From assembly GCA_963704655.1 (NCBI GenBank), contig OY969927.1, forward strand, positions 672,001-736,000: 64,000 nucleotides of DNA, written 5' to 3'. The notes under the pieces were generated by a model, which saw only the letters and a list, made by a program, of their open reading frames with translations, ran no database searches and was not told the origin of the DNA. This document shows positions 6,440-53,202 of the stretch, one piece after another (within the stretch, counting starts at the first letter, position 1; every line of letters begins with the position of its first letter). A program made the position numbers and the translations under genes. This stretch comes from an uncultured Candidatus Babeliaceae bacterium (GTDB lineage: Bacteria; Babelota; Babeliae; Babelales; Babelaceae).

Positions 6440-7603
6440 TTATGACAACTGCGCGCCGTTTGGAACAGCATGTTCAGGCGCAATAAAAATTAATCGCTCT
6501 ATAGATATTTTAGTCTCACTGGCTAATGCGAGAATCATATTATCTGGGGACCATGCAGCATGGGCAATTTGATTTTGATATTCACAAGTAAAAAAATGTT
6601 CAGGTTCTTTTTTATTTCTGACATTGAAAAATTCTAAATTATCAGGATGCTTTGTGTTAGTAATTGCAAAATACGAATCATCTGGAGAGAATACCACAGG
6701 AGTCTCATTTTTTCCACGAACACCTTCAGTGTGATAAACCACATCCCAATTATTGCTTCTATAAATTTCAAGGTTTCTTATATAATTGCGCGGCTCTGTA
6801 CCTGAATGCGGGCCAGGAATTTCAGGAACAAATTTTTTAGACTCAACGTAAAAATACCCACCTTTAGGGGACCATTCATAAGACGTTGGCCAAAATCCTT
6901 CAGAAAATTTAAATGATTTAACCATATCGCCATCTTTTTCTGCCACATGTAAAGAAACACTCTTTTTATTATCATTAACTGTTTTAACAACATAAGCGCA
7001 CAAATTATGCTCATGAGAAGTCGCAACAAAAGCGGCATCAGCTCTTTGTAAAATAGTTGCAGGAAGTGTCAATTCTTTATTTTGGCGTACATTAAAAAGA
7101 TGAGTGTCTCCTGTTTCAATAACATCATCAAAAACCCATTTGTTCCAACCATCTTTAATCAACACTTTTGTTTGGGTTTCGATATCCCAAAAATGTACCC
7201 TATGGCAATGATTAACTGAAAGAATTTTTCCATCGGGTGAAAAACTAACAGAAATTTTAGGATCTCTGTTTCGTTCCGCTTCAATAGACCAATGCTTAAT
7301 TGCTCGATCATCAACTATGTCGCAGACTCTAATAGTTGCCTTGTATTCATCATCATCCACCCATGAACAAATTGCATAACTTTTGCCATCTGGTGCCAAA
7401 TCTAAATCCAGACCTCTAAGAAGACTACTTTCATTGTTTTCCAGATTGTATCTTGTCATCTCCCACCCAGATAATTTCCAAACAAGAGCAGCAAGAACTC
7501 TTTCTTTAGACCATACCAATTTTTTAATCTCCGAAACTTCAGAACAAAAAAGTGTTTTCAAGGTAAAAAGCATACCAATCAATACTAACGTCACTTTTTT
7601 CAT
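6440..7603 (-). CDS. Secreted WD40-repeat protein, C-terminally fused to a MetG 3' remnant
   Basis: Signal peptide MKKVTLVLIG; repeated FSPDG/WSPKG/WSPD motifs; ends PEHAVPNGAQLS exactly like MetG. Confidence 0.8.
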   Translation of the reverse strand: MKKVTLVLIGMLFTLKTLFCSEVSEIKKLVWSKERVLAALVWKLSGWEMTRYNLENNESSLLRGLDLDLAPDGKSYAICSWVDDDEYKATIRVCDIVDDRAIKHWSIEAERNRDPKISVSFSPDGKILSVNHCHRVHFWDIETQTKVLIKDGWNKWVFDDVIETGDTHLFNVRQNKELTLPATILQRADAAFVATSHEHNLCAYVVKTVNDNKKSVSLHVAEKDGDMVKSFKFSEGFWPTSYEWSPKGGYFYVESKKFVPEIPGPHSGTEPRNYIRNLEIYRSNNWDVVYHTEGVRGKNETPVVFSPDDSYFAITNTKHPDNLEFFNVRNKKEPEHFFTCEYQNQIAHAAWSPDNMILALASETKISIERLIFIAPEHAVPNGAQLS

Positions 7604-7636
7604 GTTACCCTGCTTAGTAATGTACAAGATCATTAT

Positions 7637-9574
7637 TTACGATAATTGTGCGCCGTTTGGAACTGCGTGCTCAGGTGAAATTAAAACCAACTGTTCTTGC
7701 ACGTCTTTGGCAAAAAGCATCATGCCCTGTGATTCAAGGCCCATCATTTTACGTGGCGCCAAATTAAAGACAAAGAGACCCTGCCTGTTTAAAATCTGCT
7801 CAGGTGTGAAAAACTTACGAATACCAGAAAGTATTTGGCGTACGCCGTGCGGACCAAAGTTTACCTTAAGAATATAAAGTTTGTCAGATTTTTCGAGCAC
7901 TTGAACATCTTCAATAGTGCCAACACGTAATTCAACTTTTGCAAAATCATCAATAGTAATTGTTGGAGTAACAGTAGTTTCTGGTATCATAGCGGTCTCT
8001 TGCGTTTCTGGTTTTATTTCAATCTTATTAAACAATATTTCACCCTGCGTAAGCACAAACGTGTCGTTCCAAGGGTGTGAAAGCAATGCGGCAAAAGCAC
8101 CTTGTTCAGTGTTTATCTTTTTGCCAAGCTGTGAAAGCAATTGCTCCATTTTTTTTGGCATTAATGGCCAACACATATGTGCAATAGCATATAGTGCATG
8201 GCACGTTGCAGAAATAACTTCTGCAAATTTTTGTGGCTCAGGATGAGCCCCGCTCATAAGTTTCCAGGGCTGCTGGTTATGGAAATATTTATTCACGTCA
8301 TGCACATATTCCCACACATCTGCATACGCACGGTTCATATAACCCGCTTCCATCTCTTTCATAAAACGAACGATAATATTTTTACCCGTTTCATGAAGTG
8401 CAACAGATTCTGCAGACCACGTTTGTGGTGGCGTAACCGTTGCCACATTATATTTTAAAGCAAGCGTTATGGTGCGGTTAAGTAAATTACCAAGGTCATG
8501 CGCCAAGTCTGAATTAATCCGTTGTTCAAGTTCAGCGTAGGTAAAAGGCGAATCTTGTGTAATGGCCAAATGGCGAACTAAATAGTAACGTACTTGGTCA
8601 ACGCCATACGTTCCAGCAAGCTCAATCGGGTCAACTGCGTTCCCGCGAGATTTTGACATTTTATGCTCGCCGATTTTTATCCAACCGTGCACCAACAGTT
8701 TTTTTGGCATCTGTAGATCACTTGCCATCAAAAATGCTGGCCAATAAACGGCGTGAAAGCGGACTATATCTTTACCAAGCACCTGTAAATCTGCGGGCCA
8801 CCAGAAATTGAACTCCTGCTCTTTGCCCGGGGTACCATAACCAACACCGGTAATATAGTTATTAAGAGCATCTGCCCAAACATAGGTAACATGTTTATTA
8901 TCGCCAGGAAACGGGATTCCCCAAGAAATAGTGGTGCGTGAAATGGAAAGGTCCTTAAGGCCAGATTGCACAAAGCTGACAACTTCCGCCATACGCTCTT
9001 TTGGTGTAATAAAATCTGGGTTATCTTTATAAAATTGTAATAATCTATCTTGGTATGAAGATAATTTAAAAAAGTATGACTCTTCTGAAACATATTCTGT
9101 TACACGGCCACACGTCGGACATAAGGGAATATTTTCTGTAATCGTGTGCGGCATGTCCTTTTCAGTTACGAACGTTTCACATGGCGTACAGTAAAAACCG
9201 GCATAGTGTGATTTGTAGATATCACCCTTTTCAATTAAGCGCTTTATCCAGGCCTGAACAGCTTTCATGTGGTCAGCATCTGTAGTGCGGATAAATTTGG
9301 TGTAATCGATATTGTATAATTTCCAAGCATCTTTATAAGGCGCAATAAAACTATCAACAAACTCTTTTGGTTGTTTGCCGGCTGCTTGAGCAGCTTGCGC
9401 TATTTTTTGGCCATGTTCGTCAGTTCCCGTCAAAAAAAATACTTTTTTATTTTGGAGCTTATTATAACGAGCCGCAACATCTGCAAGCAGCGTTGAATAG
9501 AGTGAGCCTAAATGCGGTCGGGCATTAACATAATAAATGGGGGTTGTTACATAAAATTTATTTTTTTCTGACAT
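7637..9574 (-). CDS. metG: Methionyl-tRNA synthetase with C-terminal tRNA-binding OB domain
   Basis: TTPIYYVN..HLG, GTDEHG, KMSKS, DDFAKVELRVG, NLAPRKMMGLESQGM. Confidence 0.98.
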   Translation of the reverse strand: MSEKNKFYVTTPIYYVNARPHLGSLYSTLLADVAARYNKLQNKKVFFLTGTDEHGQKIAQAAQAAGKQPKEFVDSFIAPYKDAWKLYNIDYTKFIRTTDADHMKAVQAWIKRLIEKGDIYKSHYAGFYCTPCETFVTEKDMPHTITENIPLCPTCGRVTEYVSEESYFFKLSSYQDRLLQFYKDNPDFITPKERMAEVVSFVQSGLKDLSISRTTISWGIPFPGDNKHVTYVWADALNNYITGVGYGTPGKEQEFNFWWPADLQVLGKDIVRFHAVYWPAFLMASDLQMPKKLLVHGWIKIGEHKMSKSRGNAVDPIELAGTYGVDQVRYYLVRHLAITQDSPFTYAELEQRINSDLAHDLGNLLNRTITLALKYNVATVTPPQTWSAESVALHETGKNIIVRFMKEMEAGYMNRAYADVWEYVHDVNKYFHNQQPWKLMSGAHPEPQKFAEVISATCHALYAIAHMCWPLMPKKMEQLLSQLGKKINTEQGAFAALLSHPWNDTFVLTQGEILFNKIEIKPETQETAMIPETTVTPTITIDDFAKVELRVGTIEDVQVLEKSDKLYILKVNFGPHGVRQILSGIRKFFTPEQILNRQGLFVFNLAPRKMMGLESQGMMLFAKDVQEQLVLISPEHAVPNGAQLS

Positions 9575-9609
9575 AATATCTACCTAAATTAAAAAAGGCT
9601 TATTCTACT

Positions 9610-9640
9610 CGCTCATCCTGAGCTCGTCGAAGGGTTAGCG
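9610..9640 (+). repeat. REP-like palindromic repeat, family A (CGCTCAtCCTGAGCnnGTCGAAGGGTT)
   Basis: Near-identical copies at 18645, 39359 (reverse), 57024 and 60848 (reverse). Confidence 0.85.
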
Positions 9641-9646
9641 AGATTG

Positions 9647-9690
9647 AAAAGAGCCCATGGAAATTAATAGTATCTCCAAGGGCTCTTTTT
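9647..9690 (-). terminator. Intrinsic terminator of the 15826-9715 operon
   Basis: aaaagagccc...gggctctttt inverted repeat. Confidence 0.65.
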
Positions 9691-9714
9691 AGTATAGCAG
9701 TAAAATAGAATTAA

Positions 9715-11595: not shown

Positions 11596-11611
11596 ATTCT
11601 ATTCCTTTTAA

Positions 11612-16980: not shown

Positions 16981-16983
16981 ACA

Positions 16984-18617: not shown

Positions 18618-18644
18618 TATTATCTTTCAACAATTATTACCCCA

Positions 18645-18673
18645 CCGCTCACCCTGAGCGTAGTCGAAGGGTT
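18645..18673 (+). repeat. REP-like repeat, family A, between two copies of the potA 3' end
   Basis: ccgctcaccctgagcgtagtcgaagggtt. Confidence 0.8.
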
Positions 18674-19765
18674 TTATCTTTCAACAATCACTACGTTTTC
18701 TTTTTGCCAATAGAGATATAACTCATTGTCATAATCAATAACCTGCTGAGGAAAATGCTCTTCATTCTGTTCAAAAACCTGTACCAACTGTTGGTTTTCC
18801 AAACGAATATTATATTGCGTTGATCTACCATGATAGACAATCGCTTCAACAATTCCTTTAAGACGGGAAGAAAAACCGTCAATCTCTTTTTTTGTAATAA
18901 AAAATTTTTCTGGACGAATACTCATCACAATAGCTTTACCAGGAACCATCCACTCTTTTTTACGCGGTATAAAAATTGGAAAGGTTCCTAATTGTGGAAT
19001 ATCAATATGTGGTTGCCCTTCAAACTCTTGGTAGGTGCCACCAAAAATATTCGTGTTCCCCACAAATTGTGCCACAAATGAAGATTGTGGAAATTCATAA
19101 ATCTCTTTTGGCGTACCAATCTGTTCAACCAAACCACCATTACTCATAATAGCCATTTGGTCCGCTACGGTTAGCGCTTCAGAAGGATCATGCGTAACAT
19201 AAATAAAGGTTGTCTTAAGTTTATCTTGCAGCTCAATAAGCTCGATAAGCACTTTTTCGCGCAAGCGGATATCAAGCGCCGCCAATGGTTCATCAAGCAA
19301 TAACACTTCAGGTTCATTAATAATGGCACGTGCAAGCGCTACACGCTGCTGCTGGCCACCAGATAATGTTTTAATATGCTTATGAACATGTGCTTCTAGA
19401 TGCACCGAACGTAATACTTTAATCACTCGCTCATTAATCTCATCTTTATGAACACCCTTTACGACAAGGCCATATGCAACATTTTCAAAAACGGTCATAT
19501 GAGGGAATAGCGCATAGTTTTGAAAAACCGTGTTAACCCGTCTTTGATTAATGGGCTTATGGGTAATATTTTCATCTCCCAAAAAAATAGCCCCGCTATC
19601 AACGGTTTCAAAACCGGCGATAAGACGCAAAATAGTTGTCTTTCCACAACCACTTGGCCCTAAAAGAGCAAAAAACTTCCCTTCAGGGATAGTTAGATTA
19701 AGGTTCTCAAGGATAATGTCACCTTGATAACTTTTGGTAATATTTTTTAATTGAATGCTTCTCAT
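18674..19765 (-). CDS. potA: Spermidine/putrescine ABC ATPase
   Basis: GPSGCGKTT, VFQNYALFPHM, LSGGQQQR, LLLDEP; TOBE-like C-terminus. Confidence 0.95.
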   Translation of the reverse strand: MRSIQLKNITKSYQGDIILENLNLTIPEGKFFALLGPSGCGKTTILRLIAGFETVDSGAIFLGDENITHKPINQRRVNTVFQNYALFPHMTVFENVAYGLVVKGVHKDEINERVIKVLRSVHLEAHVHKHIKTLSGGQQQRVALARAIINEPEVLLLDEPLAALDIRLREKVLIELIELQDKLKTTFIYVTHDPSEALTVADQMAIMSNGGLVEQIGTPKEIYEFPQSSFVAQFVGNTNIFGGTYQEFEGQPHIDIPQLGTFPIFIPRKKEWMVPGKAIVMSIRPEKFFITKKEIDGFSSRLKGIVEAIVYHGRSTQYNIRLENQQLVQVFEQNEEHFPQQVIDYDNELYLYWQKENVVIVER

Positions 19766-22446: not shown

Positions 22447-23790
22447 ATGAACACTTATACTAAAAGTGCCTTATTTATAACACTTTTGAGCACAATTTCA
22501 ATGCTTGAATGTATGACGGCAAGAAGCGCACAAGGCTTAAGTGCTATTCGTCAAGGGGTTGCTGGAACAGCCAGAACATCAATAGTTGGAACGGCGCGAG
22601 GATCAGGTTTACGCTCAGCAAGCCAAGCAGCTAAACAACAAACGTCTTTTTTCCAACGTGGATATTCTCAAATGTCGCGCGAAGAAGCGGCAAATATATT
22701 TCGCTTACCTAAAAATGCAACCGCTGAAGAGATAACCGCTAAATATAGACAGTTAGCAAAAGAATACCACCCTGACATAAATCCAACAGGGGCAAAAAAT
22801 ATGCAAAACATAAATCTTGCACGCGAGACATTATTAAAGAAGACGGGGGAAGCCACTGTTCAAGAAGCATCTGCAGCAAAAGCAGCACAAGAACAAGCCA
22901 GCCAGGCCTCTGAATACTTTAAAAACATATCTGAAATTTATAAAGATAGTTTAAACAAAGGCTTAGAGAGCCTCAAAAATTCTTTGAAGGAAGCTGAACA
23001 AAAATTTGATAAAACACTAAATGATCTTAAAAAAGCTGGCAAAGAATATAACTTCCAGGCTTTATACGATGAGTACATATCCAAAAACGCTTTTTTGGCA
23101 CGTGAAAATGCTCAAAAGATGGTGCAAAATGCCCAAAAAGTTGCAGAATCAATAGGTGAAAACCTCTCAAAAAAATTCAAGACTTTAAACCTTGATCAAT
23201 ACCCCGAATATAAAACATTGTATCAAAAAACAATGCAAGAAATCAAAAATGATCAAGCTAAAACTGTCAAATTCATTGAAAGTTCCATGGCGTTATCCAA
23301 TCAATCTTTACATTCCGCTAAAATGGCTACTGCAGAATCTTATCACTTATGCTATCAAAAAATACGCGAGCAGCTTTATTCAGTCTACTTTAAAGATATA
23401 GTTTATGTTCTAGAAAACGATCTTAAAGCACTCACAAAAGGTGAAAAAATTCGCATTCTAGAAAAATTTAATAAGGAATTCGATTACGCATCAGAATTAT
23501 TCGCTAGCATGAATGTAACTCCAGAAGTATTTGCAAAAAGTCTTGATAAGTTAATAACTTCGATGCAACGTATTACTGGAGAAGTTATTACTGATGCTGC
23601 AGGAAGTGCGAGCAGAACGGCTCAAAAACTTCAATATTCACAGTTTATGAGCCGACTAGGCGCAGGTCTTGGCGCTGCAGCTGTCGGTGCATATTTTTGG
23701 CCTAAATCAGAAACTAAACCAGAACAAAAAGAAGTAGCGGCTAAACCACCTGTTGAAACATCTCAAGTATCCCAGGCGCCAGCAAAATAG
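22447..23790 (+). CDS. Secreted J-domain protein with coiled coil and C-terminal TM segment
   Basis: Signal peptide; MSREEAANIF..YRQLAKEYHPD..INLARETL; LGAGLGAAAVGAYFW. Confidence 0.85.
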   Translation: MNTYTKSALFITLLSTISMLECMTARSAQGLSAIRQGVAGTARTSIVGTARGSGLRSASQAAKQQTSFFQRGYSQMSREEAANIFRLPKNATAEEITAKYRQLAKEYHPDINPTGAKNMQNINLARETLLKKTGEATVQEASAAKAAQEQASQASEYFKNISEIYKDSLNKGLESLKNSLKEAEQKFDKTLNDLKKAGKEYNFQALYDEYISKNAFLARENAQKMVQNAQKVAESIGENLSKKFKTLNLDQYPEYKTLYQKTMQEIKNDQAKTVKFIESSMALSNQSLHSAKMATAESYHLCYQKIREQLYSVYFKDIVYVLENDLKALTKGEKIRILEKFNKEFDYASELFASMNVTPEVFAKSLDKLITSMQRITGEVITDAAGSASRTAQKLQYSQFMSRLGAGLGAAAVGAYFWPKSETKPEQKEVAAKPPVETSQVSQAPAK

Positions 23791-23799
23791 AGTAAAAAT

Positions 23800-23822
23800 A
23801 GGGGCTCCAACTGGAGCCCTTT
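23800..23822. terminator. Bidirectional terminator
   Basis: gggctcca-ac-tggagccc inverted repeat with A/T flanks. Confidence 0.75.
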
Positions 23823-23826
23823 CTGT

Positions 23827-23861
23827 TTAAAACGCATTGCCCAGTGTCAAAAAACATGCAT
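23827..23861 (-). repeat. Remnant copy of the tamA 3' end
   Basis: 30/35 nt identical to 24520-24554; reads ACFLTLGNAF* vs AWFLTLGNAF*. Confidence 0.9.
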
Positions 23862-23877
23862 GCATATGATATATTGC

Positions 23878-24216
23878 TTATAAAAGTTTGTTACAAACCT
23901 GACGAAATATTTTTTTAAAAGCCACTTGATCTATTTCACCTAGCTGCCCGATTTTTTTATGTATTAAACGATTATCAAGCGTAAAGAGCTTCATACGAAT
24001 TAATGAAGCAGAAGGTAAATTTGTGGATACTAAATCTGCAATAACATGATCATGCGCTCTTTGCTGATGAAGAGCAGAACTTATCATTACCAAAATAACT
24101 GAGCCGTCTCTATTAAATTCAGCATCAGATAAGACCAAAGCTGGCCGTATTTTTGTTTGCAGAGAATCGACAAAGGGGAAAGGGACAATAACAATATCAA
24201 AGCTTTTGTAGATCAC
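23878..24216 (-). CDS. PemK/MazF-family toxin
   Basis: FDIVIVPFPFVD...KIRPALVLS; probable GTG start overlapping the antitoxin. Confidence 0.9.
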   Translation of the reverse strand: MIYKSFDIVIVPFPFVDSLQTKIRPALVLSDAEFNRDGSVILVMISSALHQQRAHDHVIADLVSTNLPSASLIRMKLFTLDNRLIHKKIGQLGEIDQVAFKKIFRQVCNKLL

Positions 24217-24430
24217 GGTATGCCTTTTCATCTTCTTCTGAATCCCATTCAGATAACGTCTGTGCAACGGCTTTTAAATAAGTTTTATCAAGTGAATCTA
24301 TTTTTTTCAAAACAACCACACCTTCAATTATTTCAAAAATCACAGAATCACCGATTTTTAATTTCAATTGTTTACGTATTTCAGCTGGAATAGTTGTCTG
24401 GAATTTACTCGTAACCTTAACTATTTTCAT
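24197..24430 (-). CDS. AbrB/MazE/SpoVT-family antitoxin
   Basis: KVTSKFQTTIPAEIRKQL..GD; acidic tail EWDSEEDEKAY. Confidence 0.9.
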   Translation of the reverse strand: MKIVKVTSKFQTTIPAEIRKQLKLKIGDSVIFEIIEGVVVLKKIDSLDKTYLKAVAQTLSEWDSEEDEKAYRDLQKL

Positions 24431-24519: not shown

Positions 24520-27168
24520 TTAAAACGCATTACCTAATGTCAAAAACCACGCATACGAAGCTTGGTCATAGTAAGATTGGTTGCCGGGGAATTTTTTCCA
24601 TTTCCACCCAATATCAAAGCGCAATGGCCCAACAGGGGTGTTCCAGCGTAAGCCAAAGCCAGAGGCACCAATAATATCTTTTGCATGAATATCGGTAATG
24701 GCACTTTGCGTAAGAAGCCCAATATCAGTAAACAATGTTCCACCAAGTGATCTAAAAATCGTAAAACGCAACTCAAAGTTGCCATTCATCATAGTTTTGC
24801 CACCTGTGGGAACAACAATAACTTCTTGATTGCAATTAGTGTAAAAGTTTAATGGTGGAGCAAGATCCGGTTCATAACCACGCAACGAATAAGCACCGCC
24901 TAAATAAAATCGCTCTGGTGGCATTATGGCAGAAAATTGCTGATACACAATTGTCCCCAAGCGTAAACGTATTGCTAACACGGTATGCGATGGCTTGTGC
25001 AGCGGAATATAACTTCCCTGCTCTAATAAAAATTTTATAAAAGCAGCATCGCGAACTCCTAAAGGAGCAAATGCTTTTGATGAAAGAACTAAGTACCAGC
25101 CTGCAAGTGGGTCAAGGCGATTATCAACATCACTGACATATACTGACGGCTCACAAAAAAAGTAGGGAATTCGTTTATCAACAAAGCGTGTAGTAAAATC
25201 TATTGCCTGTGAAAGCGTTTTTGAAATATCAGAAATCTGCATCCAATCAATACCGCTTGTTAATCCCCACTGGAAACCAAAAATATCTTGCGATAAACCC
25301 CATAAAAAACCATCTTGTGCGTAACGGTATAATATTTCACGTGAACCGATAACAACTGGCTGATCATAACGGTTACTATAAAGTTTAAATTGCTGTTTTA
25401 TCGGCAGGTTACCTAAAAATGCTAATTGATACATAAGCATGGCATACCGTAAAAAACGTGTAATATCAAACTGCACAGAAAAAATATCTGCTGCTTTGCG
25501 TGGATTTTTCCATAAAAATGTTCCACCAAATTTATATGTTGCACCGCCGCGCCAGGTGAAGTTGGTACCAACACCTTGAAAACCTGCACGCGCACGCACT
25601 TCAAATGGGTCACTATCTTGTAGCTGAATATGGACTATCTTTTCATCTTCTTTTGTAGCGATGTTTTCTGGAAATACCGTTACCTGATCAAAAACACCAA
25701 AATTGCGTATCATTGCCGCTGTTTCATCTAACTTTTTTTTATTCCACGTATCACCCTTTTTATACTTTACCGCTCGTTCTATAATAGTATTTGACACGAT
25801 ACAAGAACCTTTAATATGTGTAGCACCAAAAGCAACTTTTTTGTTATCAGAAAAATGCCATTCTAAAACATGCTCGCCATCGTGCATAACAAATTGGGGT
25901 ATTACATGGGTGTACAAATACCCTTTTTCATGCAACTGTTTTTGTAAAAACTTTCGCATGCGCCCAATAAGAGTGCTATCTACAATTAACGGTATCTTTT
26001 GTTGTAACGTAACGTGTTGCTGTTGATAATAGGGTGCATGTTTTTTACACCAACTTTGACGATAGAGTAATGTTAAGAGCCCTTCAAAATCTTCGCCTAT
26101 AATTTTTGTTACAGTCAGTTGCTCGCCAAGATCAACGGTAACAGCAAGTTCATAGTTCCCCGATGGTAACTTATGCATCTGTGTGTCATGAATTTTAACT
26201 TTCCAATATCCCTGCTGAACAAGATATAATGTAAATGCTGATACCGCTTGCAATATTTTTTTATGATCATAACGCGTTGAAACAAGTCCCTTAAAGAATG
26301 CGCTGCGTTGAATTAAACAATCGTCAACGCCATGAACACTTACACGCTCAATTAAAGCTTGTGAACCTTCTTTAATAGAAAATAAAAGATTTAATGGTTC
26401 ATCGTAATACTCAATTTCGACATCTAAATAACCCTGTTTATGATAACGATCACGAAGCTCCTGAGCAAGTAACTCGGGTGGAATTATAGGTAGCGCTTTA
26501 CCAAACTCTGCACATGTCTGATACAACTGTTGCGCAGTAAAAAAAGAATTTCCAACAAATGTAAACCTTTTTTTATCATGCAATGAACAGTTAAATTGAA
26601 TATCAACAAGGGAATTTTCATCATGTCTTAATTGTTCCATTTCAATAGATGCAAAGAGATACCCCTTTTTTGCAAAGTAAGCAGATATCATTCGTGCCTG
26701 AGCATCAAGCAAATCCTGTGCACAGTATGCATTTTTTAGACGCGATTCAAGACGCTGATGTAATTTTTTAAAAATCTCTTCAACGCCATCTTTTTGCACG
26801 ATTTCATTTCGCAATTGACAGGTAACTGAACGTATCGTAAATAGTGGCCCTGATTTAATCGAAAGGTGCACATGCGCGGTATGGCGAGTTTGATCAAAAT
26901 TAATACGTGATTCTACATGGGCAGTAAGATACCCAAGTCGCTTAAGATACTTTTCAATTGCGCGTATACCATCTTCATGCTCTGCCTGTTTAAATGGTAC
27001 GCCTTTTGAAAGTCGATAAAGTTTTTTATAGAGGTCTTTGCCGGTAAAAATACCGGAAATTGAAATTTTACGTATAGTATATTCGGGTAAATTTTCAGCA
27101 GCTAAGTTTATACTGCTTGTGCACAGGTACAAAATTATATGCATGATCAAAAGATGTACGCGTTTCAT
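24520..27168 (-). CDS. Omp85-family (TamA/BamA-like) outer membrane protein with POTRA domains
   Basis: ERFYLGGAYSLRGY, GFGLRWNTPVGPLRFD, C-terminal GNAF; several POTRA GY motifs. Confidence 0.92.
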   Translation of the reverse strand: MKRVHLLIMHIILYLCTSSINLAAENLPEYTIRKISISGIFTGKDLYKKLYRLSKGVPFKQAEHEDGIRAIEKYLKRLGYLTAHVESRINFDQTRHTAHVHLSIKSGPLFTIRSVTCQLRNEIVQKDGVEEIFKKLHQRLESRLKNAYCAQDLLDAQARMISAYFAKKGYLFASIEMEQLRHDENSLVDIQFNCSLHDKKRFTFVGNSFFTAQQLYQTCAEFGKALPIIPPELLAQELRDRYHKQGYLDVEIEYYDEPLNLLFSIKEGSQALIERVSVHGVDDCLIQRSAFFKGLVSTRYDHKKILQAVSAFTLYLVQQGYWKVKIHDTQMHKLPSGNYELAVTVDLGEQLTVTKIIGEDFEGLLTLLYRQSWCKKHAPYYQQQHVTLQQKIPLIVDSTLIGRMRKFLQKQLHEKGYLYTHVIPQFVMHDGEHVLEWHFSDNKKVAFGATHIKGSCIVSNTIIERAVKYKKGDTWNKKKLDETAAMIRNFGVFDQVTVFPENIATKEDEKIVHIQLQDSDPFEVRARAGFQGVGTNFTWRGGATYKFGGTFLWKNPRKAADIFSVQFDITRFLRYAMLMYQLAFLGNLPIKQQFKLYSNRYDQPVVIGSREILYRYAQDGFLWGLSQDIFGFQWGLTSGIDWMQISDISKTLSQAIDFTTRFVDKRIPYFFCEPSVYVSDVDNRLDPLAGWYLVLSSKAFAPLGVRDAAFIKFLLEQGSYIPLHKPSHTVLAIRLRLGTIVYQQFSAIMPPERFYLGGAYSLRGYEPDLAPPLNFYTNCNQEVIVVPTGGKTMMNGNFELRFTIFRSLGGTLFTDIGLLTQSAITDIHAKDIIGASGFGLRWNTPVGPLRFDIGWKWKKFPGNQSYYDQASYAWFLTLGNAF

Positions 27169-36999: not shown

Positions 37000-37815
37000 A
37001 TGACAGGTTTAGATCTTTTTCATCATATTTACTGGCAACCCCTTGCATACTTCGGGATTACTCACCCATTTTTAACTATTCAATTAGATCTTATCTTTGC
37101 TACGTGGTTTGCACTTTTTTTATTACTTGTTTTTTCTCTGGTTGGCAGATACGCACTTAACCATCCAGAAAGTCTTTTACACACGGCGTACATGACCTTT
37201 ACCCGCAGTTTTATGGAGCTTGTTGCTCAGTCTTGGGGCGGCACGTGCCCAGAAAACTATTTTCTTGTCATTACCACTTTTTTTATCTTTATACTCACCT
37301 GCAATTGGTTCATGCTTATTGGCCTAGAAGAGCCGACGGCAAATTATAATACGACACTCGCGCTCGCATTACTGTCTTTTTTATATATTCAAAAAGAGTC
37401 AATAAAAAAGCATGGCGTGATAGCGTATCTGAACGAATACTTTAAAACACCATTACCCATCAGCAAATTTTCATGGCTTATGGCGCCCATTATTCTTGTA
37501 CAATATATACTCAACACCGCAGCAGCAGTAGCGCTATTTCCTATAGAGCTTATGAGTAAATTTTCTGGGGTTCTTTCTTTATCGTTTAGATTATTTGGCA
37601 ATATTTTAGCAGGTACTATTGTATTTGGGTTATGGAACTCCTTTATACATTCAACCTGGTACTTTCAGATCTTTGGGCTTGTCAGCGGCATCAACTTAGT
37701 AATACTTGGTTTTTTTGGCGTCTTTGAGGGTCTTATTCAAGCATTTGTATTTACTATTTTAACGACAACGTATCTTTCTCTTGCTACAACAAATCAACAA
37801 GAGGAGCCTGTATGA
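37000..37815 (+). CDS. atpB: F0F1 ATP synthase subunit a
   Basis: PTANYNTT.ALA, LSLSFRLFGNILAG, EGLIQAFVFTIL...Y. Confidence 0.96.
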   Translation: MTGLDLFHHIYWQPLAYFGITHPFLTIQLDLIFATWFALFLLLVFSLVGRYALNHPESLLHTAYMTFTRSFMELVAQSWGGTCPENYFLVITTFFIFILTCNWFMLIGLEEPTANYNTTLALALLSFLYIQKESIKKHGVIAYLNEYFKTPLPISKFSWLMAPIILVQYILNTAAAVALFPIELMSKFSGVLSLSFRLFGNILAGTIVFGLWNSFIHSTWYFQIFGLVSGINLVILGFFGVFEGLIQAFVFTILTTTYLSLATTNQQEEPV

Positions 37816-38750
37816 TGAATCTTGCAGCAGCACATTATAGCAGTATCGCCTTACTAATTACCCTTCCAGTTTTTGCAACGGCATTGGGCCAAGCACGCAT
37901 TGCCAAAGCTGCCTTTGCTGCCCTTAACCAGCAGCCTGCGCATGACACGGGGATAAAAAAATTATTCTTTGCTGGTATTGCACTCAGCGAAACCATAGCA
38001 TTAATTGCCGTGTTAACAACGGCATACTTATTCACCACACCACTTACTACAGATTTACAAATCTATGCACGCATAGGCACGTGCATGAGCATTATTGTTC
38101 CATGCGTTATTGTTGCATATTTTGGCAGCATGAGCATAGCGCAAGCTCTTGGTTCAGCAGCACGCCAGCCATTTTTAACCAATCAAATTTTAAGTTTTAT
38201 GCTTATCACGCAGTCACTTATGCAAACACCGGTTATTTTTTGTGCAATCTTTGGGCTGATTATTCAATATCAAGCAACAACCATTACGACCCTGCCTGCG
38301 GCATTACAATTATTAGCAGTAGGCCTTACACTCAGCTTGTCATGTATTGGACCATGTTTTGGGTTAAGTCACTTTATCGCACAAGCTTGCCATTCTTTAC
38401 GTCTAAATCGTATAGCATTTGCAAAACTTTTTTCATTTACCTTTATCACTCAAGCAATTATTGAAACACCCTTTTTATTTGGCCTTGCAACTGCTATTGT
38501 AATGCTCCAACTTCCCAATGTAACGTTGATGAAAAGTATTGCGCTATTATGCGCTGCCATTGCTCTTGGGGGAGCAACATTACCGGTCAGTATCGTATCT
38601 GCACAAGCATCCGCTAAGGTTCTTCAAGGAATCGCCCTTACGCCAGAAAATACTACACTTCTAAGCCGCTTCAGCCTCTTTTGCCAGGCGTTTATCGACA
38701 CCACCGCCGTTTACGGTCTTATTATTGCCCTCATGCTTATAATGTATTAA
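37812..38750 (+). CDS. atpE: ATP synthase subunit c, fourfold tandem fusion
   Basis: Four ~78-aa hairpin repeats (QQP/RQP loops; E60, Q138, E218, D296); overlaps the atpB stop. Confidence 0.85.
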   Translation: MMNLAAAHYSSIALLITLPVFATALGQARIAKAAFAALNQQPAHDTGIKKLFFAGIALSETIALIAVLTTAYLFTTPLTTDLQIYARIGTCMSIIVPCVIVAYFGSMSIAQALGSAARQPFLTNQILSFMLITQSLMQTPVIFCAIFGLIIQYQATTITTLPAALQLLAVGLTLSLSCIGPCFGLSHFIAQACHSLRLNRIAFAKLFSFTFITQAIIETPFLFGLATAIVMLQLPNVTLMKSIALLCAAIALGGATLPVSIVSAQASAKVLQGIALTPENTTLLSRFSLFCQAFIDTTAVYGLIIALMLIMY

Positions 38751-40659: not shown

Positions 40660-41574
40660 ATGAAACTTTATGATAATCTTCTTCACGCAATTGGCAACAC
40701 GCCTTTAGTACGAATACCCTTTAATTCTGCAGGTAAAGTATACGCAAAGCTGGAATATTTAAATCCAGGCGGCAGCATCAAAGACCGCGCTGCGCTTTAT
40801 ATGATCGAAGAAGCAGAACGTACTGGTCTTATAAAACCGGGCGGAACGCTCATTGAAGCATCTTCTGGAAACCAAGGTATTGCAACAGCACTTATTGGCG
40901 CAATTAAAGGATACAAAGTTATTATTACCGTATCTGAAAAGATCAGTGAAGAAAAACAAAAAACATTGCAAGCTTATGGCGCGCAATTGGTTCGCTGTAA
41001 GCCAACTTTACATCTTGATGACCCAAATGGTTATCATGCCAAAGCAGTAGAAATTCACCGAAACACACCAAACTCATTTATGCTTAACCAGTATTTTAAC
41101 CCAACAAATGCAGCGGCACATTATGCAATGCTTGGGCCTGAAATTTGGCAGCAAACAGATGGAAAAGTAACTCACTACCTAGCTGCAGCTGGAAGCGGCG
41201 GAACCGTAAGCGGTGCAGGAAAATATCTTAAAGAGCAAAATAATAACCTCAAAGTTATTGCAGTTGATGTTGAAAACTCTTATCGTTCAACCAACAATAA
41301 CCCAAAGCCGTATAAACTTGAGGGCATTGGCGTTGATTATGACACACCGCATTTGCGCAATAATATTATCGATGAATATGCATTAGTTAACGATGACGAC
41401 TCGATTGAAATGCTTAAAACTATGGCACAAAAATATGGCTTTCTTGTCGGCCCATCAAGCGGTGCCGTTGCTTGCGCAGCAGAGCGCCTTGCCCGCACCC
41501 TGAAAGAAGATGATATCATGGTGATCATCTTTGGCGATTCCGGCAGAGCATATTTAACAAAGAACTTTTATTAG
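40660..41574 (+). CDS. cysK: Cysteine synthase / cystathionine beta-synthase family PLP enzyme
   Basis: IGNTPLV, KLEYLNPGGSIKDR, SSGNQG, GSGGT, GPSSG, DSGRAY. Confidence 0.92.
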   Translation: MKLYDNLLHAIGNTPLVRIPFNSAGKVYAKLEYLNPGGSIKDRAALYMIEEAERTGLIKPGGTLIEASSGNQGIATALIGAIKGYKVIITVSEKISEEKQKTLQAYGAQLVRCKPTLHLDDPNGYHAKAVEIHRNTPNSFMLNQYFNPTNAAAHYAMLGPEIWQQTDGKVTHYLAAAGSGGTVSGAGKYLKEQNNNLKVIAVDVENSYRSTNNNPKPYKLEGIGVDYDTPHLRNNIIDEYALVNDDDSIEMLKTMAQKYGFLVGPSSGAVACAAERLARTLKEDDIMVIIFGDSGRAYLTKNFY

Positions 41575-41586: not shown

Positions 41587-42111
41587 ATGAAAAAAATATT
41601 GGTTTTTTCCCTATTTTTTATAGGTTGGCGCTCTTATGCTCAGCAAGATGTGCAAACTCTTATTTTAAAAAGGTCCTCTATTGAAAATTTTTTGAAACCG
41701 CTTAAGGGATCAAGAGTATTTAAACCTGAAGACAAACGAAAAAGGTCATATGTATTTCCTGAAAAATATTTGAGTAAATTACCTGATGAAATCATTGATC
41801 GCATATTACAATTAGCCAACATAGCACGATTAAGAGAAAACTTTGAGGACTGGGATACTCATAGACATTTACTCAGCTACTTGAATCATGAACTAGTATC
41901 TGCCATTACTCAACAAGTACTTATGATGTTATTTTTCAAAATAAAAATACCTGAAGACTCATGGGACTTTATAAGAGATTTTTTTCCTAAGGAGACTTTT
42001 CAACATATTGTAAAAGAGGTACAAGGGCCCCGATTTATTGTCAAAAATCCAGAGGATAAAAGAAGATATCCCGAGTACAAGTGCATTACCCCAAAAAAAA
42101 TTATTTATTAA
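41587..42111 (+). CDS. Secreted protein with F-box-like motif
   Basis: Signal peptide; LSKLPDEIIDRILQL. Confidence 0.6.
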   Translation: MKKILVFSLFFIGWRSYAQQDVQTLILKRSSIENFLKPLKGSRVFKPEDKRKRSYVFPEKYLSKLPDEIIDRILQLANIARLRENFEDWDTHRHLLSYLNHELVSAITQQVLMMLFFKIKIPEDSWDFIRDFFPKETFQHIVKEVQGPRFIVKNPEDKRRYPEYKCITPKKIIY

Positions 42112-42257: not shown

Positions 42258-43328
42258 ATGATAAAGTATTATGCTACACGCCTGATATTCCTAGCTTCAA
42301 TAGATCTTTTTGCAGCAGAGAATTCGCTAAAATTAATCAGAACACTGCCGGTAAAGCATCATCAAGAAGATTCCGATTCTCTTTATTATTTTTTTAGATG
42401 GCTCGATAATCAAAATATATTCACCTACAAAATGGGCAAAAATAAACGCGTGTGGGATATTACCACACGTGATAAACCTATGCATGTAACCAGAGATTCG
42501 GATTATTGGACTCAAGCAAAAAAATTATTTACGGCGCAATCGTTCAATAATCAATTACACAAAGAGATATCTGCAAAAACAACCATGTTCTTGGATCAAC
42601 AAACCTATAATAAAAGGAATCAATCATTTATCGGCCAACTACTTTCAGTGTTTTTTGGCAAAGAAAAAATGGAACTTGATGGCTTTAAAGTATATGGCTA
42701 TCAACCACAAAGAGAGAGGCTCTATTTACGCCCAGATGGCGAACAATATGTTCTTATAGAATTAGAAAAACCACCAAAAGGTGCTTACTATGCTCAAGAA
42801 ACATTATCGATAAATGCCATTAAACCAGAAAAAATTATTACGGCATTTAAAACACAGACAATGGAAGCTGGCATTTACCCAACAATTCCAAGTTTAAAGT
42901 TTGATTGGTCACCAGATTCCCAAAAATTTGCACTTGTGGACACCTATCATCCTTGGGACTCTACAATACAACAAATAACCATCGGGCCTGAAGATGTTAA
43001 CATTTATGAAACTGATACATTTACTATTGAAAAATCATTTACCGTAGAAACAGGCTGTATAAAAGAACTTTCATTTAGTCCCAACTCTCGTTGGTTGGCT
43101 GCATATTCTGACAATATATATAGTAGTAAAGAAAAAACAATACGTGTATGGGATTTAATCCATGGGTATTTAGCAGCCACAATTAAAGATACCCATTATG
43201 GAAAACGCAATCCATGCAATGGAACCGAAGTGACCCCATTAAATGCTGTTTGGAGCCCAGATGGCACCAAAATCGCCGCATACAATGCTGAAGGCAACAT
43301 TAATGTTTATCAGCTCCCTCAAGATTAG
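42258..43328 (+). CDS. Secreted WD40-repeat protein
   Basis: WSPDSQKFA, FSPNSRWLA..TIRVWD, WSPDGTKIA. Confidence 0.85.
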   Translation: MIKYYATRLIFLASIDLFAAENSLKLIRTLPVKHHQEDSDSLYYFFRWLDNQNIFTYKMGKNKRVWDITTRDKPMHVTRDSDYWTQAKKLFTAQSFNNQLHKEISAKTTMFLDQQTYNKRNQSFIGQLLSVFFGKEKMELDGFKVYGYQPQRERLYLRPDGEQYVLIELEKPPKGAYYAQETLSINAIKPEKIITAFKTQTMEAGIYPTIPSLKFDWSPDSQKFALVDTYHPWDSTIQQITIGPEDVNIYETDTFTIEKSFTVETGCIKELSFSPNSRWLAAYSDNIYSSKEKTIRVWDLIHGYLAATIKDTHYGKRNPCNGTEVTPLNAVWSPDGTKIAAYNAEGNINVYQLPQD

Positions 43329-46599: not shown

Positions 46600-46738
46600 A
46601 ACGTTTACCGTGAAGTTTATAGAATAATCCCCTATCTAGACTTGCGTCAGAGACAGGGGAAATGGAGGTTATCTGGATTAAAAACATATAGTTATATTTT
46701 ACAAATTTTTGGATAAATAGCAAATGTTATAAAAAAAT

Positions 46739-47500: not shown

Positions 47501-47557
47501 AATTAGCCCCTAATACTTAGCACTTATAAGCATAAACAAAGAATGTTTTATTATCAA

Positions 47558-48289: not shown

Positions 48290-48294
48290 AATTA

Positions 48295-48603: not shown

Positions 48604-48719
48604 AGGTAACTCCATTATGTTATTTATAATAAATATATTACTAATTGTAACAATATTGCAGAAAATGTCAATTTTCCAGCGATTATTAAAGTAATGCTAT
48701 AAATAAAACTTAGTTGAAT

Positions 48720-48866
48720 TTATATTGAAAATGTTAAGGCAACGCCGTGCAAATCAAGAGCAATAACGGTCTGTTGGTTAGTAAATTGTTTTGGCTCTTT
48801 AGAAACATCTTGTGCTTGAAGAACGAAACTTAGCGTTGCAAGCGTAAATAAAAGTATCTTTTTCAT
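48720..48866 (-). pseudogene. Truncated HAD allele (48 codons)
   Basis: MKKILLFTLATLSFVLQAQDVSKEPKQFTNQQTVIALDLHGVALTFSI*; last ~50 nt match 48151-48200; joined to a glpQ 3' remnant. Confidence 0.85.
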
Positions 48867-48868
48867 AG

Positions 48869-49138: not shown

Positions 49139-49244
49139 AGGTAACTCCATTATGTTATTTATAAAAAATATATTACTAATTGTAACAATGTTGCAAAAAT
49201 TGTCAAATTTCCAGCGATTATTAAAGTAATGCTATAAATAAGAC

Positions 49245-49985: not shown

Positions 49986-50001
49986 AACAACCTTTCAGTA
50001 A

Positions 50002-50682: not shown

Positions 50683-50758
50683 GGATGTCCTTTTCTAAAC
50701 TCTATAAATATGGTACAACTAATTCAAACAAAAAAAATACCTTTTAAAAGGATTTACA

Positions 50759-51424
50759 ATGAATAGCGTACTACGTTCATCGTATAAAACAATTATTACA
50801 ACAGCTTCTTACTCTTTTTTAAAATTACTTAAAATAAGTAAATTTTTAGGCTACCGCTTTAGCTTTTTTTCTGCATCACAGCTGATAACACCCGTTTTAG
50901 CGGCAGAAATAAGCTCTCAAGAATTAGTCGCCATTACGACATTACGCACGCTGTTGCATCTTTCTGTACAAACTTCGGTTACTGTCTTTGGGCTTTTGTA
51001 TTATATCCCAACATTTATTGGCGCCCTTTATTTTAAAGCATCGGTTTGCCACACCTCAAGCTTTGCATCAAAGATGGTGCGTATTTTTGCCCCCCTGGCA
51101 TGCATAGCAATTTTTGTAAGCACCTCAGTTGGTTCACAAGCGTGGGTATACTCAATCTATTGGCTTATCCCTGTACTACTCACACTTATACCGCATAGAT
51201 CGATATTTTTATCGGCACTTGCAAGTACTTTTATGGTTCATGCAGTCGGATCGGTTCTATTTATACTCAGCACGCCCATGGTCCCAGCTTTCTGGGTAGG
51301 TTTATTACCTATCGTTGCATTTGAACGTTGCTTGATAGCTGCAGGCATAACAGGGTTATACTACGCCGTTAAAATAACCCAGCACCTGCTTAAAGTTGTT
51401 ACCTTTCGCTTTGCAAACGCATAA
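50759..51424 (+). CDS. Membrane protein, possible ECF S-component
   Basis: About 6 TM helices, 221 aa; STFMVHAVGS, W..L.PIVAFER. Confidence 0.45.
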   Translation: MNSVLRSSYKTIITTASYSFLKLLKISKFLGYRFSFFSASQLITPVLAAEISSQELVAITTLRTLLHLSVQTSVTVFGLLYYIPTFIGALYFKASVCHTSSFASKMVRIFAPLACIAIFVSTSVGSQAWVYSIYWLIPVLLTLIPHRSIFLSALASTFMVHAVGSVLFILSTPMVPAFWVGLLPIVAFERCLIAAGITGLYYAVKITQHLLKVVTFRFANA

Positions 51425-51426
51425 AA

Positions 51427-52254
51427 ATGATCTTTAAAAAACTGTACACTATACTTTTTTGCGCTGCTCTTTTTGGTTGCGTATACGCAGTGTGGCTCTA
51501 TTACCGCTACACGCACTACAATAAACTCGCAAATCTTCAGCAAGAAATTCCGCAAGAAAAACGCATTAAGCATCTTGGCATTATTATGGACGGCAACCGC
51601 CGCTGGGCAAAATCGCATGGCTATAAGCCGTGGATTGGGCACAAGAAAGGCGTTGAACCCGTACGCACCACACTTGAATTTTGTATCAAAAATCAGATAC
51701 CGTACCTTACGCTCTATGTCTTTTCTTTGGAGAATTTTAATAGGCCCCAAGAAGAGCTGTCTTACTTATTTGATGTACTTGCACAGCAAATTGCAGACCA
51801 AGAGCTTGATAAACTCTTTAAAGAAGGCATTAAAGTACGCTTTATTGGTGAACGTTCACTGTTTCCTGAAAAACTTAAACCGCTTATTGAAGATATAGAA
51901 AATAAGACGCAAAACGGCACCAAACTGACCCTTAATCTACTTTTTTGCTATGGCGGCCAGCAAGAAATAGTCGCTGCATGCAAAAAAATCGCCCAAGAAT
52001 GCACAAATGGCATTTTAAAGCCTGAAGACATCACACCTGAACTCTTTGCCGAACAGCTCTGGAGCGGCCCTGTTCCACCCCCCGATTTAATAATAAGGAC
52101 GGCCGGAGACCAACGATTAAGTAATTTCCTGACTTGGGGTTCAGCCTATAGCGAACTCACCTTCTTGCCCTGTTTTTGGCCCGAAATAACCGAAAATAGG
52201 CTTGCGGCAACCACCGCAGACTACTACAACCGTAAACGCACCTTTGGCCGATAA
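51427..52254 (+). CDS. uppS: Undecaprenyl-diphosphate synthase (cis-prenyltransferase) with N-terminal TM
   Basis: HLGIIMDGNRRWA, FSLENFNRP.EE, YGG..EI, PDLIIRTAGDQRLSNF, R.RTFG. Confidence 0.96.
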   Translation: MIFKKLYTILFCAALFGCVYAVWLYYRYTHYNKLANLQQEIPQEKRIKHLGIIMDGNRRWAKSHGYKPWIGHKKGVEPVRTTLEFCIKNQIPYLTLYVFSLENFNRPQEELSYLFDVLAQQIADQELDKLFKEGIKVRFIGERSLFPEKLKPLIEDIENKTQNGTKLTLNLLFCYGGQQEIVAACKKIAQECTNGILKPEDITPELFAEQLWSGPVPPPDLIIRTAGDQRLSNFLTWGSAYSELTFLPCFWPEITENRLAATTADYYNRKRTFGR

Positions 52255-52355
52255 ATTCTTCATTTCTAGCCCCCATTTTACAATTAATTCCTATTTTGTT
52301 ATTATTAAATAGTAATAAAAAAATAGAAAGATATCTAAAAAATAAAGGAAGTTTT

Positions 52356-52742
52356 ATGAAAAAAATAGTAGCAATCTTAATTCTTACACTGACAAGCCTA
52401 TTGCCATCGTCCACTCAGGCGTCCACTGAGGCATTTAATGTACCATTATGGGGAATCGCCGCGCAAGCGACTATAGCCTATATACCTTTAATGCTCTCTG
52501 ACCCTGTTCTGAAAGACCGACCATCGATTAGTAATATGTTATATTCCAGAATGTCATATCGTACCAGAACCGCGCTTCTTCTGACGTCTGTGATTATAAG
52601 CACATCAAGTTTTCTTGACCTTGCTGATTCACGTGGATTTCTGGGCTTGTTACACAAAGCTGAGTTGTTACCTGAAGATTCAAGTAACTTATACCAATCA
52701 ATAATAGCTATCGGTCTTATTTCTATTTACGCATTATCATAA
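52356..52742 (+). CDS. Secreted/membrane hypothetical protein
   Basis: AAGGAAG RBS; MKKIVAILILTL signal peptide; hydrophobic segments. Confidence 0.65.
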   Translation: MKKIVAILILTLTSLLPSSTQASTEAFNVPLWGIAAQATIAYIPLMLSDPVLKDRPSISNMLYSRMSYRTRTALLLTSVIISTSSFLDLADSRGFLGLLHKAELLPEDSSNLYQSIIAIGLISIYALS

Positions 52743-52777
52743 ACAACTAAATATATCTTAAAATTTCAGGGTTTTTT

Positions 52778-52925
52778 ATGAAAAAAATAGTAGCAATCTT
52801 AATTCTTACGCTGGCAAGCTTTTTTGCCAGCATCCACTCAGGCATTTAATGCACCATTTACGGGAATTTTTGGCAGAAGTAGTTATAGCCCAAATATCTT
52901 TAAAGCTTTCAGAAAAGATTCGTGA
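52778..52925 (+). pseudogene. Frameshifted second copy of the 52356 gene 5' end
   Basis: First 32 nt identical (atgaaaaaaatagtagcaatcttaattcttac); T6 run shifts the frame. Confidence 0.7.
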
Positions 52926-52965
52926 GGTGGCCTTAAGTATAAACTGGGATTGTTACAAAAATGGG

Positions 52966-53202
52966 GATATTACCCCTGCGCTCTTCAATGGCCAACTTTG
53001 GGGCCAACTTTGGATGCCTAATTCACCCTGATTTAATAATCAAGACGGCCGGAGACCAACGATTAAGTAATTTCCGATTTGAGAGTTCAGCCTATAACGA
53101 ACTCACCTTCTTGCCCTGTTTTTGGCCCGAAATAACCCCGAAGAAAAACTTGCCGCAACTATAGCAGACTTCTATAAACGCAAACGGACATTTGGCCGGT
53201 AA
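52966..53202 (+). pseudogene. Degenerate copy of the uppS 3' end (~240 nt)
   Basis: PDLIIKTAGDQRLSNF...ELTFLPCFWPEIT...KRKRTFGR*, with indels, matching 52027-52254. Confidence 0.92.

Follow-up and report, generated by a model that had tools for sequence, protein, structure and literature searches.

We analysed a stretch of 64,000 nt (bases 672001–736000, hereafter the window) of the one-contig genome of an uncultured Candidatus Babeliaceae bacterium (1,298,077 bp, 38% G+C, rated 96% complete), in which short copies of the 3′ ends of conserved genes reappear downstream of the intact genes, each behind a piece of unrelated DNA that we call cargo. This architecture of intact gene, cargo and orphan gene end is a real and recurrent footprint of gene gain, found genome-wide at ~17 host genes or ~1% of genes. 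The mechanism behind it is probably recombinational and recombinase-independent. We give about an even chance to recombinational 3′-end displacement without a dedicated recombinase, in which homologous exchange in the gene body is combined with an illegitimate join in the resident tail. The pattern bears on the question of how genome-reduced obligate intracellular bacteria with few mobile elements gain lineage-specific secreted and eukaryote-like proteins. The organism is a protist-parasitic bacterium with a small genome, whose nearest relatives, judged by metG, are metagenome-assembled genomes assigned to Candidatus Babeliaceae or Dependentiae. Five species of the same genus (G001–G005; the present genome is G000) served for comparison.

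Seven such loci had been claimed in a sequence-only reading of the window. Direct comparison of the copies bears out five of them, at metG, potA, a BamA-like gene, cysK and uppS, whereas the glpQ case is a tandem duplication and the atpE case lies at chance level (both below). Pfam searches identify metG, a potA-type ABC ATPase, an Omp85/POTRA gene, cysK (PALP), a GDPD gene ('glpQ') and uppS, together with a four-hairpin ATP-synthase c protein, MazE/MazF, a pentapeptide protein and a WD40-like propeller. The Omp85/POTRA gene had been labelled tamA; its best NCBIfam match is BamA with 193 bits (TamA, 110 bits), and we refer to it as bamA.

At metG, a WD40-like cargo open reading frame (ORF) starts 3 nt past the metG stop, and the remnant (6440–6499) constitutes the last 20 codons of this ORF as an in-frame fusion. 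The two metG copies are identical at 45/60 nt; their final 13 residues are the same, and all 7 codon changes there are synonymous. The potA copies lie 54 nt apart and match at 19/21 nt with a 15-nt exact run; between them stands a 33-nt element resembling a repetitive extragenic palindromic (REP) sequence, and the displaced tail abuts the potB start. The bamA copies agree at 30/35 nt. The cysK copies agree at 33/39 nt, encode 12 identical residues and differ by codon changes that are all silent (6/6). The uppS copies are ~84% identical over 177 nt, and codon changes in the last 54 nt of the remnant divide into 7 silent and 3 non-silent. All coordinates are collected in Table 1.

We compared codon changes in 21 distinct in-frame copy pairs, of which this genome contributes 17 and the sister genomes 4. 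Among the changed codons, 92 are silent and 43 are not, which corresponds to 32% non-silent changes. Random single-base changes placed on the same sequences are silent in 25% of cases, and the expected non-silent share is ~59% if a remnant decays in place beside a constrained gene and ~75% if all change is random. The observed value departs from the in-place expectation of ~59% with a binomial P = 9e-11 and was reached in 0/5000 random-placement simulations. This excess of silent changes indicates that the two ends diverged mostly as working gene ends in separate lineages and were then brought together. The earlier claim that both copies are working alleles, not a decaying target-site duplication, is thereby sustained. 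Its numerical basis of 17 synonymous changes out of 18 is not, since the full aligned metG, cysK and bamA tails give 18 silent and 5 non-silent changes. Pairs flanking REP-like elements are biased as well, with 4 silent and 0 non-silent changes in an OPT-like transporter gene and 3 and 0 in a 70-codon ORF. Residue differences in the remnants match natural orthologue variants, as in the G004 cysK remnant, which reads 'AQNL' as in G001. Most pairs are 75–93% identical, of the order of between-species divergence in the genus.

We determined the genome-wide frequency by comparing the last 60 nt of each of 1186 called ORFs (each at least 100 codons) with the next 3 kb, at a score threshold of at least 18 and with the reverse complement as control. 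Direct matches were obtained for 37/1186 genes and reverse-complement matches for 0/1186. The 37 tail matches comprise 21 tandem paralogues, 2 copies at the end of an unrelated ORF (one being metG) and 14 orphan tails that lie in no called gene. An additional, gapped scan gave further cases, and its hosts include the OPT-like transporter, a NUDIX gene, a class-1 release factor (prfA-type), dprA (partial), grpE, ftsW/rodA, a PilB-type ATPase, an ATP synthase alpha/beta-family subunit, a SpoU methylase, an outer-membrane-protein (OMP)-like gene, uvrB and the 70-codon ORF. As had been proposed, housekeeping genes act as hosts, and most of the cargo encodes small secreted proteins or repeat proteins that are lineage-specific. 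Of the 16 non-paralogue matches, 4 fall in the window, with 0.8 expected, and this enrichment probably explains why the pattern was noticed there.

The mirror scan, in which the first 60 nt of each gene were compared with the preceding 3 kb, returned 30 paralogues, 11 matches at the starts of 'unrelated' small genes and 5 intergenic matches. The 11 matches are mostly neighbouring small ORFs with a common first ~60 nt, which we read as signal-peptide starts. Intergenic orphan tails thus face orphan heads at 14 vs 5 (two-sided P = 0.064). The polarisation to 3′ ends that had been asserted is therefore a weak tendency and not a rule, and a clear 5′ orphan is present in G003 (C1, ~205725–208245), where the start of a glycosyltransferase gene has an 81-nt, 97.5% identical copy at a distance of 2.4 kb upstream.

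The same host genes carry remnants in two sister species, with other cargo and other boundaries. The metG remnant measures 60 nt here vs 182 nt in G003, where it lies 1.1 kb downstream behind a Met-rich ORF; the cysK remnant measures 39 nt here vs 124 nt in G004, 3.2 kb downstream; and the 35-nt bamA remnant compares with two in G004, one at +541 (100 nt, preceded by a 138-codon ORF) and one at +1857 (70 nt). In alignment A1, the second of these G004 remnants, the spacer next to it and mazE run collinear to the intact bamA tail, spacer and mazE of the present genome, from which it follows that later insertions in G004, each supplying a new end, moved the ancestral bamA end away from its gene. 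G004 also offers an empty site, at which metG is followed directly by its convergent neighbour without cargo. Other sister genomes have just one copy of the metG or cysK tail at the equivalent site, whereas both repeats exceed 30 bp here, and no tail remnant was seen in the syntenic regions of G001 and G002 that were examined. A metG remnant is seen at only two of 40 loci examined from across the phylum, those of G003 (L013) and L089, so that the pattern is not phylum-wide at metG; these 40 were drawn from 48 loci, with L029–L032, L072, L076, L082 and L088 set aside as distant, partial or lacking downstream DNA. In G001, metG (C64:104587–106420) is matched in two pieces, residues 5–488 and 525–645, which may reflect a pseudogene or an assembly error.

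The surroundings of the copies point to the downstream one as the probable resident end, in agreement with the sequence-only reading: it adjoins a strong terminator-like hairpin at metG and bamA, and it is collinear with the ancestral neighbours in sister genomes. These hairpins are found 9 nt (metG) and 8 nt (bamA) past the remnants, with none listed after the intact stops, and a hairpin likewise comes after the OPT-like gene's remnant. The cargo therefore lies between the gene and that gene's own terminator. At cysK, the gene that comes after the remnant (42258–43328) has a G004 homologue that directly follows intact cysK.

Table 1 Features of the examined loci (positions in the window)
Feature	Start	End	Strand	Remarks
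metG, intact	7637	9574	−	Pfam tRNA-synt_1g and tRNA_bind; upstream tail copy, last 60 nt, at 7637–7696
metG cargo, beta-propeller (WD40-like) ORF	6440	7633	−	signal-peptide-like start
Terminator-like hairpin	6394	6431	−	15 pairs and T run; 9 nt past stop of metG remnant
potA locus	18620	18694	−	potA tail 18674–18694; REP-like element 18641–18673; displaced tail 18620–18640
Omp85/POTRA gene, BamA-like	24520	27168	−	Pfam; tail copy 24520–24554
bamA cargo, mazE and mazF	23878	24430	−	mazE 24197–24430, mazF 23878–24267; Pfam MazE_antitoxin, PemK_toxin
Displaced bamA end and hairpin	23802	23861	−	end 23827–23861; terminator-like hairpin 23802–23819, 8 nt on
cysK, intact	40660	41574	+	Pfam PALP; tail copy 41536–41574
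cysK cargo, 174-aa ORF	41587	42111	+	signal-peptide-like start; no Pfam family
Displaced cysK end	42159	42197	+	untranslated, in-frame stop codons upstream
uppS, intact	51427	52254	+	Pfam Prenyltransf; tail copy 52027–52254
uppS cargo, 148-aa secreted-type ORF	52296	52960	+	with partial paralogous copy (repeats D6, D10)
Displaced uppS 3′ end	52966	53202	+	decayed, with indels and stops
GDPD gene ('glpQ') tandem duplication	48140	49270	−	not a swap; alignment A2
Claimed atpE remnant	39286	39318	+	not supported

None of the cargo examined contains a recombinase, and the tails have no common core, no 7-mer being found in more than 3/16 of them, which confirms the earlier observation that the loci lack a shared attachment core and an integrase. 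The genome encodes three recombinases, a Xer-like tyrosine recombinase (~530 kb), a divergent tyrosine recombinase (~389 kb) and a large serine recombinase (~841 kb), all far from the loci. Family searches for RVT_1, rve and Y1 transposases returned no match in the genome, nor were dispersed repeats of insertion-sequence (IS) size found there; with no RVT_1 reverse transcriptase found, the transcript-templated route that had been offered as one source of the polarity has no support. In phage 21 and e14, which reside in icd, and in tRNA-targeting islands, a cognate integrase acts on a fixed core, and the element replaces the 3′ end of its target, the two ends differing mainly by silent changes. 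The layout at our loci equals that of such elements, which integrate into gene 3′ ends and restore them, and one could therefore take the cargo for integrase-less relics mobilised by one of the encoded tyrosine or serine recombinases acting in trans, with a replacement 3′ end in the attachment site. We consider this very improbable. Unlike the icd- and tRNA-type elements, the loci involve ~17 different target genes with no common core, the boundaries differ between sister species at metG, cysK and bamA, and the cargo, which can be as small as 33 nt, includes no recombinase.

In-place duplication, either as a long target-site duplication or as a tandem segmental one, followed by divergence within the same genome, is the true explanation at glpQ. 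There, the 14-nt match that had been read as a swapped end is one edge of a 194-nt, 93% identical direct repeat within two collinear ~560-nt units, each of which begins 22 nt before the end of glpQ, takes in a small secreted ORF and stops at codon ~47 of a HAD-type gene (mean column identity 83% over both units, alignment A2). The repeat is the joint of an ordinary head-to-tail duplication, which yields an orphan glpQ tail (48710–48732) together with an orphan HAD head. Several near-identical pairs are compatible with the same origin, namely those of the SpoU methylase (107/108), prfA (21/21), pilB (18/18), the NUDIX gene (34/36) and the first G004 bamA remnant (bamA-1, 92/99, with both non-silent changes sitting in the remnant), and insertion of restriction–modification genes with long target duplications of 46–423 bp at 93–100% identity is documented (PMC2853133). 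For the pattern as a whole we nevertheless regard in-place duplication as quite improbable: the silent excess over the 21 pairs rejects a neutrally decaying remnant, the remnant residues follow natural orthologue variation, and at 14/16 non-glpQ loci the start of the cargo is not repeated past the remnant (atpA has a 20-nt match), while at glpQ, as the positive control, it is repeated.

Any model must import an allelic 3′ end with the cargo and keep the resident end in its old surroundings, which leaves two models that need no recombinase. In the first, which is the one we favour, related DNA from the same genus, roughly 7–25% diverged at the tails, would enter the cell carrying the 3′ part of a conserved gene and the accessory DNA behind it in the donor. 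On one side, RecA-type homologous recombination would take place inside the conserved gene body; on the other, non-homologous side, an illegitimate joint would form in the last ~20–240 nt of the resident gene, upstream of the resident terminator. The product would be ordered as an intact (mosaic) gene, the cargo, the resident gene end and the resident terminator, a position in which the cargo could be transcribed by read-through, and repeated rounds would result in stacked remnants. Remnants would be common because the gap between stop and terminator is only ~8 nt, so that most harmless joints fall in the coding tail, and they would be short because long or similar repeats are lost by recombination between the copies. 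The remnants measure 18–240 nt. The genome encodes RecA, DprA, MutS and a PilB-type ATPase. Among the public sequencing runs listed as containing this sequence, none is recorded as RNA. The sequence-only reading had likened the process to homology-facilitated illegitimate recombination (HFIR), and this likeness is upheld in part: the alleles, the resident context and the recombinase-free cargo agree with it, while the predicted donor tract upstream is not detectable with relatives of ~80–87% identity and a circle model fits equally well in architecture.

This second model is a Campbell-type single crossover, in which a circle that carries a 3′ fragment of the gene and the cargo, excised via two tail copies, integrates in the tail of a resident gene and duplicates the fragment. 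It requires no mosaic gene body, matching the absence of a detectable break, and the G003 metG pair contains one block of 74 identical nt that could represent a crossover or heteroduplex tract. Its architecture of intact gene, cargo and variable remnant is identical to that of the Rhs C-terminal displacement model (PMC2935791), and a study of E. coli conjugation reports duplications in 56/60 recombinants, with 109–950 bp duplicated in 14 sequenced clones (PMC3240628). We nonetheless judge the circle model unlikely, partly on the lengths of the repeats and partly on those of the units. The longest identical run is 14 nt in the 60-nt metG pair, 11 of 39 nt in cysK, 12 of 33 nt in bamA, 11 of 39 nt in the OMP-like gene and 8 of 54 nt at the uppS end. 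Measured against the minimal homology of RecA, identical runs of 8–14 nt are too short for a crossover inside the repeat, so that many of these short and diverged pairs are poor substrates, and an upstream anchor combined with an illegitimate joint is favoured for most loci. Cargo and tail together comprise only 54–125 nt at potA, the prefix of prfA and the OPT-like gene, which is too small for a double-stranded circle; as such units are unlikely to circularise, HFIR is again favoured over the circle model for most loci. The circle model also gives no account of how circles first arise and are transferred. Contigs from four public runs, short and of low depth, contained none that joined across cargo and no circle or excision joint, with the uncovered parts being uninformative.

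Several observations weigh against recombinational end displacement as we favour it. (i) No donor was found: a search of the WD40-like cargo against 5.8 billion proteins recovered only itself and distant WD40 matches, and none of the 40 other family genomes encodes a homologue of it (0/40). (ii) The donor tract predicted in the gene body was not detectable: in cysK and bamA, sliding-window identity to the five sister species runs on without a clear break, although at ~80–87% identity these relatives give the comparison little power. Identity to sister species does drop in the last 13–20 codons of metG and uppS, and this drop may reflect weaker constraint at the gene end. (iii) Tail comparisons with sister species at metG, cysK, uppS and uvrB show neither copy to be consistently nearer, and at uvrB the sister species agrees with the intact tail at 126 of 156 nt and with the remnant at 118, so that the intact tail is, if anything, the nearer one; decay of the remnant could account for this. 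(iv) The 74-nt block in the G003 metG pair is identical while its flanks differ at 23/79 sites, which suggests recombination between the copies, either as a circle crossover or as later gene conversion. (v) The SpoU methylase, release-factor and PilB-type pairs could represent recent events or true in-place duplications. (vi) Cargo at four loci consists of a REP-like hairpin element alone, as small as 33 nt, which suggests that the hairpin has a role beyond this model. (vii) The sole ComEC-family match (genome 1045948–1046376) contains two in-frame TAA stops within the match, and its open frame is 369 codons; judged by its sequence, it may be a broken or shortened gene for an uptake channel, which leaves DNA uptake in question. 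The survey of mobility and competence genes that the sequence-only reading had called for thus gives a divided picture, with no match to an RVT_1 reverse transcriptase, recombinases present elsewhere in the genome, RecA and DprA encoded, and the ComEC-like gene interrupted. (viii) The E. coli conjugation assay was itself aimed at HFIR, and 56/60 events were single-crossover duplications instead (PMC3240628). In favour of the model stands a precedent, as HFIR has been proposed for effector displacement in type VI secretion system (T6SS) clusters of Vibrio (PMC5361080). In G004, uvrB (C21:6343–8307) contains 7 in-frame stops and may be a pseudogene or a draft-assembly error.

The possibility that strain mixtures were collapsed into chimeric duplicated ends during assembly is suggested by the fact that the relatives are metagenome-assembled genomes and that the copies resemble two alleles. 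We consider such an artefact hardly credible. The present genome is a single 1.30 Mb contig, unrelated cargo of up to 3.2 kb separates the copies, the fused protein of WD40-like ORF and metG tail is recorded on 3 contigs, contigs from runs of two studies match the remnant-bearing positions 6237–6457 and 23652–23862 without difference, and analogous structures occur in separately assembled sister genomes.

The cargo comprises small ORFs that begin like signal peptides and fall into no Pfam family, together with an ankyrin-repeat protein, a WD40-like protein, MazEF and a GIY-YIG protein, and the one MazEF pair is the only selfish module. The cysK cargo ORF was not found in the syntenic regions of four sister genomes. 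Of the labels given previously, WD40-like, MazEF and pentapeptide are backed by Pfam; F-box, assigned to ORF 41587–42111, is without Pfam support even at E ≤ 1. Protein-coding cargo is co-oriented with its host gene at 10/11 loci in this genome, the exception being uvrB. The statement that cargo is always co-oriented accordingly holds inside the window and fails at uvrB and in one G004 bamA segment. The cargo at grpE is a free-standing 106-aa GIY-YIG ORF (genome 474580–474900, minus strand) and carries the sole nuclease-type domain among the cargo.

The REP-like element at potA has a 27-nt core with 21 genome copies, 20 of them elsewhere (e.g. 192745, 165813 and 1202879), and 4/21 copies have flanking direct repeats of 14–22 nt that include a gene's stop codon. 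Many of the other copies extend into a ~55-nt palindrome; a Y1 (RAYT-type) transposase was not found in the genome. At the OPT-like locus, 71 nt of cargo separate two allelic copies of the gene's last 54 nt. This cargo consists entirely of a second dispersed hairpin element of ~45–70 nt with >10 partial copies (genome 66671–66741).

Related processes have been described in other settings. HFIR in transformable bacteria (de Vries & Wackernagel 2002; Prudhomme et al. 2002) reportedly occurs at very low frequency under selection in the laboratory, where recipient DNA is usually deleted in the process. It resembles the process proposed here in its one-sided homologous anchor, RecA-type recombination and second, illegitimate joint. 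Here, in contrast, the process is suggested by natural genomes, the joint lies upstream of the anchor end and thereby yields a duplication, and ~1% of genes are affected. Insertion with long target duplication is said to have been described by Nobusato et al. in 2000. Such insertions resemble the present loci in having no mobility gene and direct repeats that far exceed the target duplications of transposons, some of which overlap a gene 3′ end, and the cases are mostly from naturally competent species (Furuta et al. 2010, PMC2853133). Their cargo is restriction–modification genes, and their repeats nearly match one another as well as the empty site (44/46 to 417/423), whereas most repeats here are 75–93% identical with mainly silent differences and are thus alleles.

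The closest layout is that of C-terminal displacement in Rhs, contact-dependent inhibition (CDI) and T6SS proteins, for which an intact gene is followed by incoming DNA and by the old 3′ end with a variable core fragment, no integrase is involved, and successive events build arrays (Jackson et al. 2009, PMC2935791; Kirchberger et al. 2017, PMC5361080), comparable to the two G004 bamA remnants. The mechanism proposed there is a circle crossover (PMC2935791) or HFIR (PMC5361080). The displaced tips in those systems are non-homologous toxin domains with immunity genes, and the process diversifies the host gene (same sources). Unlike these, the ends at our loci are orthologous and equivalent ends of housekeeping genes, and the host protein remains unchanged while unrelated cargo is gained downstream. 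A limited literature search turned up no description of the pattern at housekeeping genes or in Dependentiae.

The remnants can be used as footprints, as they mark an acquisition, give the insertion point to the base, keep a fragment of the pre-insertion allele and permit relative dating. If the mechanism of recombinational end displacement holds, accessory-gene gain in the phylum would become mappable and datable from sequence alone, and illegitimate capture beside conserved anchors, so far known mainly from the laboratory and from toxin loci, would shape natural housekeeping neighbourhoods. A wider reading, which we put forward only tentatively and regard as rather doubtful, is that tail displacement, which would need no recombinase, might be a main route by which Babeliaceae obtain host-interaction genes, with the conserved gene end and its terminator as a site for docking and expressing the cargo, co-infecting relatives supplying homeologous DNA that is taken in through one homologous crossover, and stable REP-like hairpins helping to set the end of the fragment. 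Hairpins that help to define the end of the captured fragment would explain cargo consisting of a REP-like element alone.

The atpE copies agree at 23/33 nt, nowhere match exactly over more than 8 nt in a row and fall below the threshold of the tail scan; as the mean best score per gene is ~10, we assign this match to chance. Homologues of the pentapeptide gene occupy the same position in G004 and G001. The neighbouring ORF at window 37812–38750 encodes a 312-aa fused multi-hairpin c subunit with four ATP-synthase c-family stretches, which is conserved in G003, G004 and G001.

Small-ORF duplication is also apparent elsewhere. Tandem arrays at window 54287–56311 and 57615–60503 (families D2, D4 and D8) combine near-identical signal-peptide starts with diverged bodies, and the glpQ duplication units likewise have conserved 5′ ends and fast-changing bodies. 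The genome region ~262000–330000 is dense in long tandem and inverted repeats, for example a 1.37 kb inverted pair with 92.6% identity (286769–288141 vs 318617–319989).

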